Virus record (IMG/VR): IMGVR_UViG_2695420565_000021
Coordinates: 1 to 7,128 of that record
Origin: a virus
Lineage: Duplodnaviria > Heunggongvirae > Uroviricota > Caudoviricetes
Strand: one strand, 5' to 3'
Length of the DNA stretch: 7,128 nt
In this document: piece after piece, positions 1 through 7,128 of the stretch
Position numbering within the stretch: position 1 is the stretch's first letter
How the letters are laid out: each line of letters starts with the position of its first letter
The notes under the pieces: model-generated
What the model was told of the DNA's origin: nothing
Seen by the model: the letters and a program-made list of their open reading frames with translations, nothing else
The model's database searches: none
Translations under genes and position numbers: made by a program

Positions 1-140
1 CTCTCGTCTGGGGAATATCTCCCCGGCAGCCTTCAGGGAAAAATATCATCAGATAGCTGCTTAAAAAAAGAACAAATGGTAGTGTCCGCTATTGTCAGTA
101 CACCTCAAATATCGCAAAACTCAAGCGATACGAGCTTGAT

Positions 141-305
141 ATGGATGGTTGTGACTCGTTCGGTCAGGATTGTGGCGCTGACATGACTGAAGATTCTGAT
201 GGCGATTATGTCCTGTTTGATGACGTGGTTAAGTTGTTTGAGTTTGATACAACCACTCAGAAGATAGAAAGCCCAGCAAAGGAGGCAACCAGTGAGCGAA
301 ATTAA
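141..305 (+). CDS. Doubtful small acidic protein (54 aa)
   Basis: ATG at 141 to TAA at 303-305, found by hand translation; below the length cutoff of the supplied ORF track. Product MDGCDSFGQDCGADMTEDSDGDYVLFDDVVKLFEFDTTTQKIESPAKEATSERN has about 15 Asp/Glu against 4 Lys/Arg. Only a weak SD (GAG about 6 nt upstream). Its 3' end overlaps the next gene start by 14 nt in another frame. Confidence 0.25.
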   Translation: MDGCDSFGQDCGADMTEDSDGDYVLFDDVVKLFEFDTTTQKIESPAKEATSERN

Positions 306-942
306 TTACCAGGCACTGCGTGAGGCGGCAGAGCGTGCAATTCCGGCAATGGAACGCCTGTTAATGTTGCCAGTTGATGATGATTTGTTAAGTGAACAGG
401 AACTTAAAGATTACGGTGTGGATATTGATGCGCTCAACGCCTTCAAATTTCTGGCCGGACCAGAAACCGTGCTGGCACTACTGGATGAATGGGAAAGAAA
501 CCAGCAATACATCAAACGCCGCGACCAGGAGAACGAGGATATTGCGCTTACGGTTGGGAAGCTGCGCGTTGAGCTGGAAGGCAAAGACAGCAAAATAGCC
601 AATCTTACCGCCGAACGCGATGCTCTTCGTGAAGGTGAGATGGGCGACGCTAGGCATAGCAACACACGGGCCGCAGCTGATATCTACTTCCAACTGGTCG
701 AGGAATGCGAAATTCCTGCTGGCGGATCTCTGGTCGAGTACGTTGACGATATGCGCGAGAAGCTGGAAGCCGCAGAGAAGCGGATTGCTGAACTGGAAGC
801 GCGGGAAATATCGCTCCCAGAACGTAGCAGCATGCTTCATCGAACAGATTTTCACGAGGATTACCAAACGGTAATGGCATACAAAGTTTCTGAAGTCATC
901 GATGCAATCCGCGCTACTGGCATTCGCATCAAAGGAGAGTGA
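292..942 (+). CDS. Ea22-like prophage early-region protein with coiled-coil segments (216 aa)
   Basis: GTG start at 292 preceded by GGAGG at 281-285 (6-nt spacer). The translation has heptad-like charged stretches (IKRRDQENEDIALTVGKLRVELEGKDSKIANLTAERDALREGE, MREKLEAAEKRIAELEAREI) and an N-terminus MSEINYQALREAAE and C-terminus GIRIKGE that I recall as characteristic of lambda Ea22 and relatives. This is a memory-based assignment, not a search result. Confidence 0.7.
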   Translation: MSEINYQALREAAERAIPAMERLLMLPVDDDLLSEQELKDYGVDIDALNAFKFLAGPETVLALLDEWERNQQYIKRRDQENEDIALTVGKLRVELEGKDSKIANLTAERDALREGEMGDARHSNTRAAADIYFQLVEECEIPAGGSLVEYVDDMREKLEAAEKRIAELEAREISLPERSSMLHRTDFHEDYQTVMAYKVSEVIDAIRATGIRIKGE

Positions 943-943
943 T

Positions 944-1801
944 ATGAGCACTATCACTAAAGAACGTATCGAATTGTTCATTAAATCCCCGCTTGAAAAC
1001 GGGCTTACTCGTGGCGAACAAATGGAACTGGCACGAATTGCGCTGGCATCGCTGGAAGCAGAGCCTGTGGCGTATATCATTCAGGACTCTGACGCTCGTA
1101 GTCGTGGAGAGAAAGGCATCCTTCGCTATTTCGCAAATATCAGCGACGAGGATATAAACGAGTACGAAATTACCGTAACTCCGCTTTACGCCGCCCCTCC
1201 AGAGACGGTATCTGTGCCTGATGCGATGGAAATGGATGATGACTTTGACAGCGCGTTTGAACACGGAAAAGCTGTCGGCTGGAACGCCTATCGCGCAGCC
1301 ATGCTTCAGTCCGGAAACTTTCGGGAAAACAAGAATTCGTCAACCAATAATTTTCGTGAAATCGCGGAAACGTCAACCAACTATCCGGTAATTCCTAGTG
1401 AGGTGTTGTCCGCAATCCAGAAGGTTGCCAAGATTCGTGCCGATTTCGATGATTTTGACGGTGACAGGCGAGGTATCTGTGATTGTCTGGATGAGGCTGA
1501 GCAAGAGCTTATCGTTACCATTAACAAATATGCCAGTCAGTTGGCAGCAGAACCTATCGCGCCTAATGACGTTCGAGAGCAGACAGCCATTCCGCAAGTT
1601 CCGGTAACTCCGGATGGTTGGATAAGCTGTAGTGAGCGAATGCCGAAAGGGTATGCTGATGTGTTAGTGACCGATGGCGAGCATGTCGAGGTTAAATGGT
1701 GGGATGAATCTGGGTATTGGAATAGTTGGACGGAACTTAACTCAGATATCTTTGCCGATGAAATAACTCACTGGATGCCGCTACCAGAGCCTCCACTTTG
1801 A
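944..1801 (+). CDS. DUF551 domain-containing prophage protein (285 aa)
   Basis: ATG at 944 with SD AAGGAGAG at 932-939, one nucleotide after the upstream TGA (940-942), which suggests translational coupling. The C-terminus (PDGWISCSERMPKGYADVLVTDGEHVEVKWWDESGYWNSWTELNSDIFADEITHWMPLPEPP) matches the DUF551 signature as I recall it. The ORF-track start at 902 is in the same frame but lies inside the upstream gene and has no SD. Confidence 0.8.
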   Translation: MSTITKERIELFIKSPLENGLTRGEQMELARIALASLEAEPVAYIIQDSDARSRGEKGILRYFANISDEDINEYEITVTPLYAAPPETVSVPDAMEMDDDFDSAFEHGKAVGWNAYRAAMLQSGNFRENKNSSTNNFREIAETSTNYPVIPSEVLSAIQKVAKIRADFDDFDGDRRGICDCLDEAEQELIVTINKYASQLAAEPIAPNDVREQTAIPQVPVTPDGWISCSERMPKGYADVLVTDGEHVEVKWWDESGYWNSWTELNSDIFADEITHWMPLPEPPL

Positions 1802-1897
1802 AAGCGAAGCTTATACATATCTTTTACATCAGCAATCTATTGTTAATCTCCAATCAATGTTACGTTGTCATCTCACTCATGCTTTGGAGGTAGTGAT

Positions 1898-2077
1898 ATG
1901 TCTTGTCCAAAATGCGGTTCTGGAAATATTGCAAAAGAAAAAACAATGCGTGGATGGTCTGATGATTATGTGTGCTGCGATTGCGGATACAACGACTCTA
2001 AAGACGCATTTGGAGAGCGTGGTAAAAACGATTTTGTCAAAATTAATAAAGAACGCGAAGGCAACGAAAAAAGCTAA
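1898..2077 (+). CDS. Small Cys4 zinc-ribbon protein (59 aa)
   Basis: ATG at 1898 preceded by GGAGG at 1886-1890 (7-nt spacer). Product MSCPKCGSGNIAKEKTMRGWSDDYVCCDCGYNDSKDAFGERGKNDFVKINKEREGNEKS has a CxxC...CCxC cysteine arrangement and a Lys/Glu-rich tail. The gene is AT-rich relative to its neighbours and is followed by an intrinsic terminator. The ORF-track start at 1865 is a TTG without SD. Confidence 0.6.
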   Translation: MSCPKCGSGNIAKEKTMRGWSDDYVCCDCGYNDSKDAFGERGKNDFVKINKEREGNEKS

Positions 2078-2140
2078 TTTATTTATTCATATATGAAAAC
2101 AATGTAACCAATATTCGAATTGAAGAACTGAAAGAACACC

Positions 2141-2164
2141 AAGCCGCCTGATGGCGGTTTTTTT
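2141..2164 (+). terminator. Rho-independent terminator downstream of the zinc-ribbon gene
   Basis: Stem AGCCGCC (2142-2148) / GGCGGTT (2153-2159) with loop TGAT, running into a run of 7 T (2158-2164); located 64 nt after the zinc-ribbon stop codon. Confidence 0.55.
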
Positions 2165-2178
2165 ATTGGAGACAAGAA

Positions 2179-2523
2179 ATGTCAGATTTGGCTATGAAGG
2201 TTTTGAAATGGCAATCGACTGGCGATGTCGGCATCAGTAGCGCAACTCTTGCCTCAATCGCATGTGGACTGAAAAAGAATATCTATGGTCATCACTTCGG
2301 CGCTCCACATGACGCAGCAGACTTCCGGCGATGCGTTGCACTTGTTGAGCAGATTCCAGAAATCAGAGATTCATTCGACAAGGTTGCAAAGCGCGTTCCG
2401 GCATTCAAAGGAATCCTCAACGAATGGGATTCACTCGTTGCTCTGTTGAAGTCTGAAATGAAGATACACGAAAACAAAGCACCAGAGACTTACAGAAGAA
2501 TTAGCGAGCTACGCAAGGACTAA
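2179..2523 (+). CDS. Hypothetical prophage accessory protein (114 aa), family not recognised
   Basis: ATG at 2179 with GGAG at 2168-2171 (7-nt spacer). Soluble-looking product with no obvious transmembrane segment (MSDLAMKVLKWQSTGDVGISSATLASIACGLKKNIYGHHFGAPHDAADFRRCVALVEQ...). Flanked by a terminator upstream and hairpin plus T-tract downstream. Confidence 0.6.
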   Translation: MSDLAMKVLKWQSTGDVGISSATLASIACGLKKNIYGHHFGAPHDAADFRRCVALVEQIPEIRDSFDKVAKRVPAFKGILNEWDSLVALLKSEMKIHENKAPETYRRISELRKD

Positions 2524-2524
2524 C

Positions 2525-2543
2525 GCCTCACACTCGATGAGGC
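2525..2543 (+). other. Perfect 6-bp stem-loop immediately after the 114-aa gene stop, without a U-tract
   Basis: GCCTCA (2525-2530), loop CACTCGA, TGAGGC (2538-2543). It starts 2 nt after the TAA at 2521-2523. Could be an RNA-stabilising or processing hairpin rather than a terminator. Confidence 0.3.
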
Positions 2544-2562
2544 CTGTACATATCTGATAGAT

Positions 2563-2585
2563 CCGCTATATGGCGGTTTCTTTTT
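2563..2585 (+). terminator. Weak candidate intrinsic terminator upstream of the AlpA-family gene
   Basis: Short GC stem CCGC (2563-2566) / GCGG (2573-2576) followed by TTTCTTTTT (2577-2585). The sequence resembles the terminator at 2141-2164 (CCGCCTGATGGCGGTTTTTTT versus CCGCTATATGGCGGTTTCTTTTT). Confidence 0.35.
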
Positions 2586-2600
2586 GCCTGGAGAATTAAG

Positions 2601-2792
2601 ATGACCGATACCAGCCTGATTCCTGAGAAAGAAGTGATGAACAAGCTCGGTGTTTCATCACGTCAGACAATCTGGAACTATACCAAACGGCACGGATTTC
2701 CGAAGCCAGTCAGAACCCACCCCAAATCATACCTTCGTGAAGCTGTTGAGGGGTGGATTCTTAACGGTGGCGTTAATCAGAAATGCTCCTGA
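2601..2792 (+). CDS. alpA: AlpA/Xis-family helix-turn-helix protein (prophage excisionase or integrase regulator), 63 aa
   Basis: ATG at 2601 with GGAG at 2590-2593 (7-nt spacer). Translation shows the AlpA-type HTH pattern (KLGVSSRQTIWNYTKRHGFPKPVRTHPKSYLREAVEGWI). Lies directly beside the integrase. An in-frame ATG at 2638 is an alternative start. The gene symbol reflects family membership only. Confidence 0.7.
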   Translation: MTDTSLIPEKEVMNKLGVSSRQTIWNYTKRHGFPKPVRTHPKSYLREAVEGWILNGGVNQKCS

Positions 2793-3951
2793 TGTGCCAG
2801 AACAATTTATCAGCGTGAAGCTCATACGCTTTGCGCTGAGCCTCTATCCAGTCGTGTTTATTGTATACGGACATTATCCCGCCAAGTTCATGACCGAGCA
2901 TTCGCTCAGTAACATGAGGCTCGACATTCATCTCGGACAGACGTGTAACAAGCGTTCTTCTGAAATCATGTGTTCGCCAGTAACCTAGATCCATCCCTCC
3001 CCTTATTCTATTTACGAATCGGTTGGCTGCAGCGATGCTGATCGGTTTGTTTATGTCTTCTCCAGGGAAAAGAACATCATTGTACGTTGTCATGGCCTTT
3101 TCGAGAAAAGGCTTAATTTGTTCGAATATTGGACGACGGATAACATTACCCATCTTGCTATGCTCTTTCGGTACGGTCCATACGTTGTCCAGCAGGTCAA
3201 ATTCTGTCTTTGTTGCCAGCCTAAGCTCTGAGAGCCTCGCCCCCCACAGCATAAGCATCTGATGAAGGAGCTTATTTGACGTAGACGCACGGCTTCTTTC
3301 AATAGCAAGCCAAATCTTAGCCAGTTCGTGATACGACAGTACCCGATCCCCTACCTCAGCGCGGGAGCCGAAGTCCCTTGGTTGGATGCTCATAATTGCG
3401 CAACTATCTATCAACTGACGCCGCATGCACCAACTTATTGCTGATCTTAGTTGACTTAGCACCTGCCTTGCTCGGCGTGGATTATCTCTTTCTTCTTCGG
3501 TAAGCAGGTCAACCCATTGCTTAACCGTGATAGAAGATGCCGGACGATTAGGAAAGGCGTCATGCATGCGCTTCATAACCGTTGATCGGTAAAGTGCCTG
3601 GGTCTTTTCTCTGAGAGTTGTAGAGACGTAGTTGTCGAACCAGTAGTCGAGACACTGGGCGACCGTCATGGAGTTCTCCACCTTCTCTTCAAAATAAGTG
3701 CGTGGATCCGTTCCTGAGAAATAGAGCTTTCGCAAGTCAGCAGTGATCTGTCTGGCATCCTTCAAAGACAGGGATGGGTATCGACCAAGCCCAAGTCGAT
3801 TAGGCTTGCCATGCCAGCGATAGCGGTACTGGAACTGGATGACCCCCTTCGGTGAAATTCGTACGCTGAGGCCATCGGCATCAGCCACTTCTTGTGGGCC
3901 CGAATATGGTTTACCATAAATAGTACGCAGTTTTGTGTCGCTTATAGCCAT
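2773..3951 (-). CDS. int: Tyrosine-type site-specific integrase of the P4/IntS type (392 aa)
   Basis: Full-length - strand ORF. N-terminal arm-binding-like region (LSVRISPKGVIQFQYRYRWHGKPNRLGLGRYPSLSLKDAR) and C-terminal catalytic signature (HDFRRT as the H-x-x-R box, and SVYNKH with the candidate catalytic Tyr). No SD before the ATG. Family named from memory of the fold signature. Confidence 0.9.
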   Translation of the reverse strand: MAISDTKLRTIYGKPYSGPQEVADADGLSVRISPKGVIQFQYRYRWHGKPNRLGLGRYPSLSLKDARQITADLRKLYFSGTDPRTYFEEKVENSMTVAQCLDYWFDNYVSTTLREKTQALYRSTVMKRMHDAFPNRPASSITVKQWVDLLTEEERDNPRRARQVLSQLRSAISWCMRRQLIDSCAIMSIQPRDFGSRAEVGDRVLSYHELAKIWLAIERSRASTSNKLLHQMLMLWGARLSELRLATKTEFDLLDNVWTVPKEHSKMGNVIRRPIFEQIKPFLEKAMTTYNDVLFPGEDINKPISIAAANRFVNRIRGGMDLGYWRTHDFRRTLVTRLSEMNVEPHVTERMLGHELGGIMSVYNKHDWIEAQRKAYELHADKLFWHIRSISD

Positions 3952-4132
3952 AAATAATATTTGGTACGCTCAGAAATAATAGTTTGGTACACACCTGGTA
4001 CACAATATCACATGGACAACAGCGCACAGTAAACAACTATATTTGACGTTCGTAGACATACTCAGGTGAAAAAATGGTTGTTTTTCGAGTTATAACAGAC
4101 AGTTAATTAACTACAGTGGACAATGCTAGACA
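3952..4132. promoter_or_regulatory. Integrase-sbcB intergenic region carrying candidate attachment-site arm repeats and the divergent int and sbcB promoters
   Basis: Direct repeats AAATAATA(G)TTTGGTAC (3952-3967 and 3974-3990), GGTACACA twice with about 10-bp phasing (3987-3994 and 3997-4004), GACAATG twice (4119-4125 and 4129-4135), and CACAG(A)TAAACAAC (4025-4037 here, 4141-4154 inside sbcB). Promoter-like hexamers exist on both strands (for example TATAAC at 4091-4096) but none with a convincing -35/-10 pair. Confidence 0.4.
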
Positions 4133-5557
4133 ATGACAGACACAGATAAACAACCTACCTTCCTCTTTCACGATTACGAAACCTTTGGCACGCACCCCGC
4201 GTTAGATCGCCCTGCACAGTTCGCAGCCATTCGCACCGATAGCGAATTCAATGTCATCGGCGAACCCGAAGTCTTTTACTGCAAGCCCGCTGATGACTAT
4301 TTACCCCAGCCAGGAGCCGTATTAATTACCGGTATTACCCCGCAGGAAGCACGGGCGAAAGGAGAAAACGAAGCCGCGTTTGCCGCCCGTATTCACTCGC
4401 TTTTTACCGTACCGAAGACCTGTATTCTGGGCTACAACAATGTGCGTTTCGACGACGAAGTCACACGCAACATTTTTTATCGTAATTTCTACGATCCTTA
4501 CGCCTGGAGCTGGCAGCATGATAACTCGCGCTGGGATTTACTGGATGTTATGCGTGCCTGTTATGCCCTGCGCCCGGAAGGAATAAACTGGCCTGAAAAT
4601 GATGACGGTCTACCGAGCTTTCGCCTTGAGCATTTAACCAAAGCGAATGGTATTGAACATAGCAACGCCCACGATGCGATGGCTGATGTGTACGCCACTA
4701 TTGCGATGGCAAAGCTGGTAAAAACGCGTCAGCCACGCCTGTTTGATTATCTCTTTACCCATCGTAATAAACACAAACTGATGGCGTTGATTGATGTTCC
4801 GCAGATGAAACCCCTGGTGCACGTTTCCGGAATGTTTGGAGCATGGCGCGGCAATACCAGCTGGGTGGCACCGCTGGCGTGGCATCCTGAAAATCGCAAT
4901 GCCGTAATTATGGTGGATTTGGCAGGAGACATTTCGCCATTACTGGAACTGGATAGCGACACATTGCGCGAGCGTTTATATACCGCAAAAACCGATCTTG
5001 GCGATAACGCCGCCGTTCCGGTTAAGCTGGTGCATATCAATAAATGTCCGGTGCTGGCCCAGGCGAATACGCTACGCCCGGAAGATGCCGACCGACTGGG
5101 AATTAATCGTCAGCATTGCCTCGATAACCTGAAAATTCTGCGTGAAAATCCGCAAGTGCGCGAAAAAGTGGTGGCGATATTCGCGGAAGCCGAACCGTTT
5201 ACGCCTTCAGATAACGTGGATGCACAGCTTTATAACGGCTTTTTCAGTGACGCAGATCGTGCAGCAATGAAAATTGTGCTGGAAACCGAGCCGCGTAATT
5301 TACCGGCACTGGATATCACTTTTGTTGATAAACGGATTGAAAAGCTGTTGTTCAATTATCGGGCACGCAACTTCCCGGGGACGCTGGATTATGCCGAGCA
5401 GCAACGCTGGCTGGAGCACCGTCGCCAGGTCTTCACGCCAGAGTTTTTGCAGGGTTATGCTGATGAATTGCAGATGCTGGTACAACAATATGCCGATGAC
5501 AAAGAGAAAGTGGCGCTGTTAAAAGCACTTTGGCAGTACGCGGAAGAGATTGTCTAA
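4133..5557 (+). CDS. sbcB: Exodeoxyribonuclease I (exonuclease I, 3'-5' ssDNA exonuclease), 474 aa
   Basis: Full-length ORF whose translation from residue 9 onward matches E. coli SbcB as I recall it (FLFHDYETFGTHPALDRPAQFAAIRTD... to ...ALWQYAEEIV). The first 9 residues (MTDTDKQPT) differ from the K-12 N-terminus I remember (MMNDGKQQST). No clear SD. Confidence 0.95.
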   Translation: MTDTDKQPTFLFHDYETFGTHPALDRPAQFAAIRTDSEFNVIGEPEVFYCKPADDYLPQPGAVLITGITPQEARAKGENEAAFAARIHSLFTVPKTCILGYNNVRFDDEVTRNIFYRNFYDPYAWSWQHDNSRWDLLDVMRACYALRPEGINWPENDDGLPSFRLEHLTKANGIEHSNAHDAMADVYATIAMAKLVKTRQPRLFDYLFTHRNKHKLMALIDVPQMKPLVHVSGMFGAWRGNTSWVAPLAWHPENRNAVIMVDLAGDISPLLELDSDTLRERLYTAKTDLGDNAAVPVKLVHINKCPVLAQANTLRPEDADRLGINRQHCLDNLKILRENPQVREKVVAIFAEAEPFTPSDNVDAQLYNGFFSDADRAAMKIVLETEPRNLPALDITFVDKRIEKLLFNYRARNFPGTLDYAEQQRWLEHRRQVFTPEFLQGYADELQMLVQQYADDKEKVALLKALWQYAEEIV

Positions 5558-5599
5558 TTTGAAGCCTTCGCCGCTGGTACGGCGGAGGACAATGTTGAG

Positions 5600-5827
5600 T
5601 CAGGCTTTTTGAACGGTGATGCTCCACGCTGCATCGCCAATCTGCTGATAATCGGTGATGGCATGTCCTTCTTCTGCCGCCCACTGTGGGATTGCTTCAG
5701 TTGCCTGGGTGCAATCAAACTCAATCACTAACTCATCGCCGCTGACCATTTCTGCCAGAGCTGCTTTTGCTTCTATGAGTGGAAACGGACAGACCTGCGT
5801 CACCACATCCAGCTTTTTAATCACCAT
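5600..5827 (-). CDS. yeeD: TusA-like sulfur-carrier protein YeeD (75 aa)
   Basis: Small - strand ORF with the TusA-family CPFP motif (MVIKKLDVVTQVCPFPLIEAKAAL...), 13 nt downstream of yeeE on the same strand (operon arrangement), convergent with sbcB. Confidence 0.9.
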   Translation of the reverse strand: MVIKKLDVVTQVCPFPLIEAKAALAEMVSGDELVIEFDCTQATEAIPQWAAEEGHAITDYQQIGDAAWSITVQKA

Positions 5828-5840
5828 CTTTACACCTTAC

Positions 5841-6899
5841 TTAATTTGCCGCAGCAGTTGCCAGTCGCGCCTTACGCTGCGGTCGAACATACACAAGCCA
5901 GGACGCAGTCCAGACTCCGAGAATCATAAATACAAGGCCAATCCAGCCCTGCCAGGTCATCATTGCAGTCATAACCAGTCCATTACCGATAGAGCAACCA
6001 CCTGCAATACTGGCACCGAAGCCCATCAGTACACCACCTAACCCGCTACGTAATGTTGTTTGTGCATCAGCTGCGCGAACGCGGAACTCACGGCTCGCTT
6101 TGGCTGCAATAAATGACCCCACGAAGATCCCTAACACCAGGAAAACGCCCCAGTTAATGTATTTCATGTCACCCGCGACCAGAAATTGCAGAATATTGGC
6201 CGTTGGGGAAGTGATTCCTAACCCAAACATGCGTCCGGTTGCTTCACTCAGGGGCCAGGCTAAAAGCGCAATCAAACCGATGAGTACAGCAGTGACAAAG
6301 GGATGCCAGCGTTTTTCAAACAGAATATGAGCGATCCCGGTTCGGCGCGGCGGTAAGGTCGCGACTTTGAGTTTTGGCTTCTTCAACTCTTTCATCACCA
6401 CCCAGAGCGTTATCACCAGCAAAACGGCAACCAACGGCCACACAGACAAATTAAAAGTCTCAGCAATAGAGTTATGTTCAGTACTGTAGTGCTGCAAGGT
6501 TTGATTTAAACCACTGGCATGTGGAGAACGCATCACCGCACTCATCACCATATAAGTGAAAAGCGCGATCCAACTGCCGATCAATCCCTCACCCGCGCGA
6601 TACCAGGTCCCGGTGGCACATCCACCCGCCAGAACAATTCCCAGCCCGAAGATATACCCACCTATAACAGTACCAAGCCACGGGAACGCCCCGGCTTCGT
6701 AAGTCAGTAGGCCCGCCTGAATTAACGCAAAAACCCCCACGCTTTGTACCGAAATTGCAATCAGCAAGGCGTAAAACATGCGATTATTTTTCACGATATA
6801 CATATCGCGAAAACCACCTGTCAGGCAAAAACGCCCACGCTGCATGACAAATCCCAGCAGAGCACCACAAATTAGCCCGCTTAATATCATTGAAAACAT
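5841..6899 (-). CDS. yeeE: YeeE/YedE-family inner-membrane transporter (thiosulfate uptake), 352 aa
   Basis: Long - strand ORF encoding a highly hydrophobic multi-pass membrane protein with repeated Cys-containing motifs (RGRFCLTGGFRD, GGCATGTWYRAGEG, GGCSIGNG) typical of YeeE/YedE. Conserved position upstream of yeeD. Confidence 0.9.
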   Translation of the reverse strand: MFSMILSGLICGALLGFVMQRGRFCLTGGFRDMYIVKNNRMFYALLIAISVQSVGVFALIQAGLLTYEAGAFPWLGTVIGGYIFGLGIVLAGGCATGTWYRAGEGLIGSWIALFTYMVMSAVMRSPHASGLNQTLQHYSTEHNSIAETFNLSVWPLVAVLLVITLWVVMKELKKPKLKVATLPPRRTGIAHILFEKRWHPFVTAVLIGLIALLAWPLSEATGRMFGLGITSPTANILQFLVAGDMKYINWGVFLVLGIFVGSFIAAKASREFRVRAADAQTTLRSGLGGVLMGFGASIAGGCSIGNGLVMTAMMTWQGWIGLVFMILGVWTASWLVYVRPQRKARLATAAAN

Positions 6900-7053
6900 A
6901 AATTAATTAACCAGATGAATGTTAATGAGGAAATTATTCATGACTGGTGGAATGCAGACCAATAACCAAATTCTCTAAATTAGAACAAATGGTTATTAAT
7001 GAGGAGTTCGATACAAAAGAATAAAAAAACCGAAGCCAGGTAATGACTCCAAC

Positions 7054-7128
7054 TTACTGATAGTGTTTTATGTTCAGATAATGCCCGATGACCTTGTCAT
7101 GCAGCTCCACCGATTTTGAGAACGACAG
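7054..7128 (-). CDS. plaP: Probable 3' end of an upstream - strand gene, consistent by synteny with plaP/yeeF (partial, continues beyond the window)
   Basis: The only - strand frame open to the window edge reads ...LSFSKSVELHDKVIGHYLNIKHYQ then stop (TAA complement at 7054-7056). Assignment to plaP/yeeF rests on remembered gene order sbcB-yeeD-yeeE-yeeF, not on the 24 visible residues. Confidence 0.4.
   Translation of the reverse strand: MSFSKSVELHDKVIGHYLNIKHYQ

Follow-up and report, generated by a model that had tools for sequence, protein, structure and literature searches.

A probable lambdoid prophage end joined to sbcB by a portable phage-2851-type integration cassette

Gene order of the locus and the integration cassette

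The stretch of DNA described here, positions 1 to 7,128 of IMG/VR virus record IMGVR_UViG_2695420565_000021 (hereafter the window), is a whole contig of a draft assembly (GCA_001283765.1, CYCZ01000104.1; 7,128 bp) that is not linked to a prophage late region. It joins lambdoid early-left genes and a tyrosine integrase (Int) gene to sbcB, the chromosomal gene of exonuclease I (ExoI; Table 1). Genes were taken from the listing of open reading frames (ORFs) and from Pfam matches; PHROG, NCBIfam, PADLOC and Rfam were run on the window as well. Five genes of the early-left side (Ea22-like, DUF551, zinc-ribbon, 114-amino-acid (aa) and AlpA-like) lie on the + strand and the integrase on the - strand, in agreement with a preliminary description made from the letters of the DNA. 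The contrast with lambda drawn there is also correct, as in the lambda record N, ea22, xis and int lie on the same strand and int has its 3´ end next to attP. We propose that the window is very probably the int-proximal end of a lambdoid prophage that entered the 5´ end of sbcB by means of a phage-2851-type cassette, spanning approximately 2552-4178. Its parts are a terminator, a small helix-turn-helix (HTH) protein probably of AlpA/Vis type, a convergent Int with a P4-family arm-binding domain and one attP arm.

The preliminary description had suggested a swapped integration module, and two observations bear out this mosaicism. Firstly, the same early genes occur with another integrase. The E. 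coli contigs L017-L020 match window positions 764-2551 (L017 from 916) at 99.05% identity, and the homology stops at 2551. Past this point come an HTH_17 xis-like gene and the gene of a 386-aa integrase, which run in the direction of the early genes; the integrase gene abuts, with its 3´ end, tRNA-Thr(CGU) next to proA, a thrW-type site in the lambda/P22-style layout. The DUF551 protein has an identical copy in contigs bearing this different, thrW-type integrase. Secondly, the block 2570-4178 is found as one unbroken match of 98.8-99.5% in 27 phage records with differing early and virion genes, whereas the Ea22-DUF551 segment (292-1801) matches 521 phage records, each over at most 42% of its length and always in 2 to 4 pieces. 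Int and the early genes thus do not share one history. Carriers of the block span Sf101 (Lederbergvirus, a P22-like podovirus), HK140 (Hendrixvirinae, an HK97-like siphovirus) and the Shiga toxin (Stx) phage 2851 (Pankowvirus), and the records of mEp234 and HK544 annotate an "attP (type 2851)". The module is present in 583 of 5,426 complete E. coli genomes.

On its left side the cassette can be delimited to about 50 bp, at a terminator. Homology starts at 2570 in HK140 and at 2524 in Sf101, and it ends at 2551 in L017-L020; the boundary therefore falls between 2524 and 2570 in independent recombinants and coincides with a hairpin at 2563-2576 (-8.2 kcal/mol, z -2.1). The cassette appears to be a self-contained unit that recombines onto varied lambdoid backbones just past the last early-left gene, which accounts for an integrase that runs opposite to that of lambda. 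That lambdoid phages exchange their integration cassettes as modules is textbook knowledge; the literature or database annotation already covers the site, the core, the integrase and the AlpA-family neighbour, and the arrangement is common. The window offers a clean, fully resolved example: an orientation at odds with that of lambda marks a known cassette that is portable.

Int is 99.2-99.5% identical over 392 aa to the integrases of 2851, HK140 and Sf101 and has all the catalytic residues (R239, K266, H328, R331, H354 and Y363). Its Arm-DNA-bind_3 domain (PF13356) scores 64.8 bits against a cut-off of 27. The same domain is present in P4 Int, IntS and IntA, while lambda Int has Arm-DNA-bind_1 (PF09003). 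Sequence kinship is another matter: identity is 25% to P4 Int, 23% to IntA, 22% to IntS and 24% to lambda Int, NCBIfam PRK09692 reaches 51 bits against a cut-off of 434, and Phage_int_M, found in P4 Int, IntS and IntA, has no match in the window Int. The preliminary label of a "P4/IntS-type" integrase hence holds for the arm-binding domain, the R-K-H-R-H-Y set of residues and the attP layout, but not as a statement of close relation to P4 Int, IntS or IntA, which at 22-25% stand no nearer than lambda Int.

The AlpA-like gene and int are convergent and their 3´ ends overlap by 20 nt. A convergent pair with exactly this overlap occurs also in a Serratia prophage at sbcB and in contig L023 (AlpA-like proteins 65-73%, Int 69-70% identical), so the pair is inherited as a unit. 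The 63-aa AlpA-like protein is 100% identical in HK140 and Sf101. It matches PHROG 66, "excisionase and transcriptional regulator" (E 1.9e-8), and hhalign relates it to P4 Vis with a probability of 92% (E 6e-7). Pfam AlpA (PF05930) is matched by seven of ten of its homologues (best E 2.5e-6); against solved structures, the profile gives a marginal match to the AlpA family only (8c3t, E 0.08). PADLOC, run on the window, returned no defence-system match except a weak HTH match for this protein. By analogy with P4 Vis and KplE1 TorI we infer that it is the excision factor, or recombination directionality factor (RDF). One homologue, in contig L024, lies downstream of a tail tape-measure gene.

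Table 1. Features of the 7,128-bp window
Feature	Position	Strand	Basis
Contig-start segment; lambdoid repeat or mosaic boundary	1..104		Sister contigs L005, L007, L010 match window only from 105 onward
Ead/Ea22-like early-left gene, 216 aa	292..942	+	Pfam PF13935 Ead_Ea22 E 3.9e-30; PHROG 250
DUF551-domain early-left gene, 285 aa	944..1801	+	Pfam PF04448 E 5e-15; public gene call
Zinc-ribbon gene, Eag/Lar-like, 59 aa	1898..2077	+	PHROG 2945 E 5e-31; weak Pfam Lar_restr_allev and HVO_2753 matches
Intrinsic terminator-like hairpin with T-run, 3´ of zinc-ribbon gene	2141..2168	+	Hairpin stem-loop 2141-2160; folding energy
114-aa gene, predicted all-helical, early-left block	2179..2523	+	PHROG 1229; AlphaFold2
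Left boundary of integration module with terminator-like hairpin (2563-2576 and T-run)	2552..2600	+	Homology ends; folding
Probable AlpA/Vis-family HTH protein, 63 aa, putative recombination directionality factor (excisionase)	2601..2792	+	PHROG 66; hhalign against P4 Vis
Tyrosine integrase, 392 aa, phage-2851 type	2773..3951	-	Pfam Arm-DNA-bind_3 E 8e-18, Phage_integrase E 1e-16
Three direct TGGTACRC repeats, putative Int arm-type sites	3962-3969, 3985-3992, 3996-4003	+	Motif count against shuffles
Phage-supplied surrogate 5´ end of sbcB (start codon and 10 codons)	4133..4165	+	Follows HK140/Sf101 attP, not K-12
13-bp att core TTTCACGATTACG, crossover region	4166..4178	+	Common to K-12 attB and phage attP
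Chromosomal remainder of sbcB (exonuclease I)	4179..5557	+	Pfam RNase_T, Exonuc_X-T_C
sbcB, whole hybrid ORF	4133-5557	+	
tsuB/yeeD	5600-5827	-	
tsuA/yeeE	5841-6899	-	
IS1 end	7039-7128		90 nt, 100% identical to IS1 copies on plasmids

The attachment site and the hybrid sbcB gene

The junction between int and sbcB in the window was aligned with the empty site of K-12 and with attP of HK140 and Sf101. The window tracks phage DNA up to a stretch that ends in CCTACCTTCCTCTTTCACGATTACG, and then K-12 from TTTCACGATTACG onward. In the window this core is a single-copy sequence; it equals sbcB codons F12-H13-D14-Y15 and one further base. It is published as its reverse complement CGTAATCGTGAAA for phages 2851 and Sf101 (PMC4159516; Jakhetia 2014); Strauch 2008, as cited in PMC4159516, is likewise credited with defining the 13-bp core. 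The boundary between phage and host is this core, at 4166-4178, and not 4160, the end position given in the preliminary description; the sbcB start codon (4133) with the first 11 codons is phage DNA. Between 4149 and 7038 the window is 99.76% identical to K-12. The F-H-D-Y codons covered by the core stand where the exonuclease domain begins; this aspartate and the following glutamate we take, from the structure of ExoI, to be active-site residues.

All sequence upstream of the core is phage-derived, and the consequence for sbcB is a hybrid gene. The protein begins with MTDTDKQPT here and with MMNDGKQQST in K-12, and is identical afterwards. An in-frame start and an open frame into the core are kept in every attP and prophage form examined. 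E. coli phages use ATG as the surrogate start, relatives whose Int is about 70% identical use TTG, and the exact hybrid SbcB protein is present on 337 contigs. Because the prophage supplies a substitute start, sbcB stays an intact 474-aa ORF in the prophage junction: the phage rebuilds the gene and does not disrupt it. The common label of sbcB as "disrupted" should be corrected to an intact gene with a phage-derived start. Replacement of the 5´ end of a target gene, presumably with its promoter, seems less usual than duplication of the 3´ end.

Further elements of the att site surround the core. The three TGGTACRC repeats lie 11-52 bp upstream of the int start codon (3962-4003) and overlap the putative promoter/leader region of int. 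By chance 0.25 copies are expected, and three were reached in none of 200 shuffles. In attP of HK140, Sf101 and L023 two more copies are situated approximately 60-80 bp past the core; these far-arm repeats are missing from the window, as a prophage junction predicts. Relatives whose Int is about 70% identical keep the GTAC centre of each of the three proximal repeats unchanged but vary in the bases around it. We suggest that the repeats are the arm-type binding sites of Int. A second direct repeat, (A/G)TGGACAA, is found between the arm repeats and the core (4012-4019 and 4115-4122), and both the Serratia relative and L023 have kept it; the AlpA-like protein or IHF may bind there.

With its P4-family arm-binding domain and P4-like attP layout, the AlpA-like gene together with int could also be imagined as a separate P4-like satellite or island, inserted in tandem, with an unrelated lambdoid prophage on one side and sbcB on the other, and AlpA-family regulators are indeed typical of P4-like islands and phage-inducible chromosomal islands. 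Such a tandem would be extremely improbable in our view. The window and the 13.8-kb sister contig L005 contain a single att core each, with none between the early genes and the AlpA-like gene. The block is just 1.6 kb long, lacks replication and capsid-redirecting genes, and sits in the packaged genomes of HK140, mEp234, HK544, Sf101 and 2851, where attP is contiguous with tail or cargo genes. We have rejected the tandem satellite on account of the one att core, and continue with the cassette as a part of the lambdoid prophage itself.

The remainder of the element and its possible regulation

What lies beyond the left end of the window can be seen in L005, a contig of a sister isolate that is 99.96% identical over window positions 105-7128 and runs 6.3 kb further. 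It adds DUF2737, abc2, ssb, a Rad52-type recombinase gene, ral, N, cI, cro, cII and part of O, which shows that the locus is not the short degraded island whose discovery would have contradicted the preliminary description. For the element extended in this way, the best coverage is 65% in complete E. coli genomes and 45% in phage records. Two complete relatives were viewed. E3 has a P22-like prophage with a full late region and no stx annotated. S1, which shares the IS1 insertion of the window, also has a full late region, in which tRNA genes alone separate Q from the holin gene, and no stx annotated. In this prophage at sbcB the tRNAs are tRNA-Thr and tRNA-Asn (L026 5988-6143). Stx phages carry tRNAs together with stx between Q and the holin gene.

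The preliminary description named sbcB as a site of Stx2c prophages, and this is right (PMC8309913, PMC4159516). The element might accordingly be a Stx2c-type or other Stx converting prophage, with the toxin in its unseen remainder. The same int module is carried by Stx2c, Stx2a and Stx1a phages (2851, 1717, Stx2_5044 and the WGPS series), sbcB is the usual Stx2c site in O157 (PMC8309913), and window positions 1-~110 match Stx2a phages at 96-98%. We nevertheless hold a toxin phage to be very unlikely. The module occurs equally in phages without Stx (HK140, mEp234, HK544, Sf101, E212, EC.P3 and APC_JM3.2), and its carriage by E. coli genomes of all kinds disqualifies it as a Stx marker. The recombination region of L005 is of the Rad52-ssb-abc2 kind, as opposed to gam-bet-exo of 2851, and its best phage match is Sf101 (45%, versus 39-44% for Stx phages). 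The two complete relatives, as said, have no stx annotated. A 2851-type integrase at sbcB alone is thus no sign of a Shiga-toxin phage, since the cassette rides P22-like, HK97-like and Stx phages.

Erosion by insertion sequence (IS) elements deserves more thought. Under this explanation the locus is a remnant, not a complete prophage. The contig stops at 7128 because the end of an IS1 lies there, and its left end changes at 105, breaking a 105-aa ORF of the sister contigs. In 8 of 10 S. flexneri genomes, Jakhetia et al. described IS elements together with an Sf101-like int on the upstream side of sbcB (PMC4159516). On the other side, all seven phage genes of the window are intact, and the sister contig continues, with N, cI, cro and cII intact, as far as O. 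The IS1 is placed outside the prophage, between tsuA/yeeE and plaP, and is also found in E. coli S1 and L005. Short-read contigs normally break at lambdoid repeats, whether the prophage is damaged or not. We regard a remnant as unlikely, though less so than a toxin phage, and prefer the end of a lambdoid prophage.

The early-left block itself adds a few observations. Besides the start at 944, the DUF551 gene has an alternative one at 902; the resulting 299-aa reading had no exact-protein match, while the 285-aa and Ea22 readings did. The zinc-ribbon gene is labelled "Eag protein" in the annotations of Sf101 and strain E3. The 114-aa gene accompanies the early-left block with both integrase types and is a part of that block, not of the integration module. 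Its AlphaFold2 model is all-helical with a mean pLDDT of 92.9. Compared with the PDB, the model has no solved relative (best E-value 5.5), and its matches are uncharacterised phage proteins only, one of them from a Clavibacter phage; Pfam, NCBIfam and PADLOC gave no match for the gene. We considered it as cargo and set this aside: the model is confident, yet has no structural relative of known function. The gene is flanked by two terminator-like hairpins and stands beside a low-GC stretch (36.5% over 1801-2200). NCBIfam has no family for the accessory genes of the window, and neither tRNA genes nor Rfam families were found in it.

The two hairpins are of interest for the expression of the AlpA-like gene. 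The first (2141-2160) has a folding energy of -13.2 kcal/mol (z -3.35); its homologous site in HK140 (window 2141-2168) is annotated as a rho-independent terminator, and the 60-nt segment 2104-2163 is 100% identical to lambda. The second, at 2563-2576 and followed by a T-run, lies 15 nt upstream of the AlpA-like start codon. From its stem to that codon there are 24 nt, and so there is no room for a dedicated promoter downstream of the hairpin. With two hairpins upstream and so short a distance from the second one, the AlpA-like gene is most plausibly carried on N-antiterminated pL transcripts; L005 has N, cI and cro upstream.

A possible scheme of regulation, drawn by analogy with P4 Int/Vis and KplE1 IntS/TorI, would work as follows. 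The int gene, for which only the 181-bp spacer (3952-4132) can supply a promoter, would be transcribed from there, away from att. Binding of Int to the TGGTACRC repeats, which lie upstream of the int start codon and between it and any spacer promoter, would repress transcription of int. The AlpA-like gene would be expressed only when N-antiterminated pL transcription passes the two upstream terminators, and excision would be switched on at prophage induction through the RDF, not through int. In P4, both Int and Vis lower the expression of int (Piazzolla 2006, as cited in PMC2951348). In KplE1 the intS promoter overlaps attL, IntS and TorI act as repressors, and excision depends on whether the RDF is expressed (PMC2951348). 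If pL transcription reads through the AlpA-like gene, the transcripts would run antisense into int. About 300 nt past the AlpA-like stop codon, inside int and antisense to it, there is an 8-pair hairpin with a weak T-run (3094-3113, +). Its stability is indistinguishable from that of shuffled sequence (z -1.6); it could end such read-through transcripts.

The cassette replaces the promoter, start codon and first nine residues of sbcB, and lysogens may for this reason express exonuclease I from a phage-controlled promoter sharing the 181-bp spacer with the int promoter and the sites of Int and RDF. A further role may fall to the 20-nt convergent overlap between the AlpA-like gene and int, which during induction could serve as a switch working by antisense or by transcription interference. 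We offer both ideas as doubtful speculation. If the first is true, the level of ExoI would be coupled to the recombination state of the prophage. What remains of interest here is twofold: a conserved exchange of the promoter and start of sbcB for phage sequence, and the putative regulatory logic of the convergent, overlapping RDF-int pair.

Several points weigh against the reading put forward here. The window is a single draft contig, and its positions 1-104, which interrupt the 105-aa ORF intact in L005, disagree with the sister contigs; either a true recombination junction or an artefact of short-read assembly at a lambdoid repeat would explain this. The AlpA-like protein of the window scores 17.8 bits with PF05930, against a Pfam gathering threshold of 21. 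A 71%-identical homologue occurs without an adjacent integrase (L024 5001-5192, L025 1850-2041), hence the AlpA-like family is not always paired with int. The argument for binding of Int to the repeats is one of position and conservation only. As for the int promoter, which the preliminary description had located in the att-proximal spacer, the geometry agrees, but a strict sigma-70 scan of 1750-4250 found no promoter, the spacer included. The best candidate, seen by eye, is a weak extended -10-like TGTGATATT on the - strand (4012-4004), which abuts the nearest arm repeat. We do not assert the promoter candidates found by eye, as they are too poorly conserved in diverged relatives.

Comparison with known systems

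With lambda xis-int-attP, the window shares the location behind the ea genes, at the pL operon's distal end, and the upstream terminators that call for N antitermination. Other traits of lambda are absent here: xis and int that run with pL, an int whose 3´ end abuts attP (sib retroregulation), and Arm-DNA-bind_1.

The IntS and TorI system of KplE1 (CPS-53), HK620 and Sf6 is similar in that the att arm next to int is also the region of the int promoter, putative in the window, and that transcription of int and of the RDF is uncoupled. Negative autoregulation by Int and RDF is the paradigm in the literature (PMC2951348). HK620 has the Ea22, DUF551 and Eag genes at 95-99% identity. It differs in the placement of attP, which lies between the RDF-side genes and int; both run in the same direction and end up at opposite prophage ends. 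In the window, RDF and int are adjacent and convergent at one end, and the identity to IntS is 22%.

The int-attP region of P4 has the same Arm-DNA-bind_3 domain, an int gene directed away from attP, three repeats at or just upstream of the start of int, and a small HTH protein, which in the window is probably of the AlpA/Vis family. Its annotated attP follows the same plan of three repeats, core and two repeats, with the core approximately 150 bp upstream in P4 and approximately 200 bp in the window, and the two repeats approximately 55-80 bp beyond the core. The differences are substantial as well. P4 Int is 25% identical and targets a tRNA gene, here replaced by a protein-coding gene. The vis gene is about 5 kb from int, in the immunity/early region, whereas the AlpA-like gene of the window abuts int convergently. 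P4 is a satellite; here we deal with what is probably a full lambdoid phage.

The early-left combination of the window (Ea22, DUF551, Eag and the 114-aa gene, to which the sister contig adds Rad52-ssb-abc2) has a best coverage of at most 66% in phage records and at most 83% in the complete E. coli genomes searched. The integration end is shared much more closely with the module of 2851, 1717, Sf101, HK140, mEp234 and HK544. Int is 99.2-99.5% and the AlpA-like protein 100% identical; the core (CGTAATCGTGAAA), the arm repeats (TTTGGTACRCA), the convergent gene pair and the insertion within sbcB's 5´ end are the same. The only difference lies in the attached backbone.

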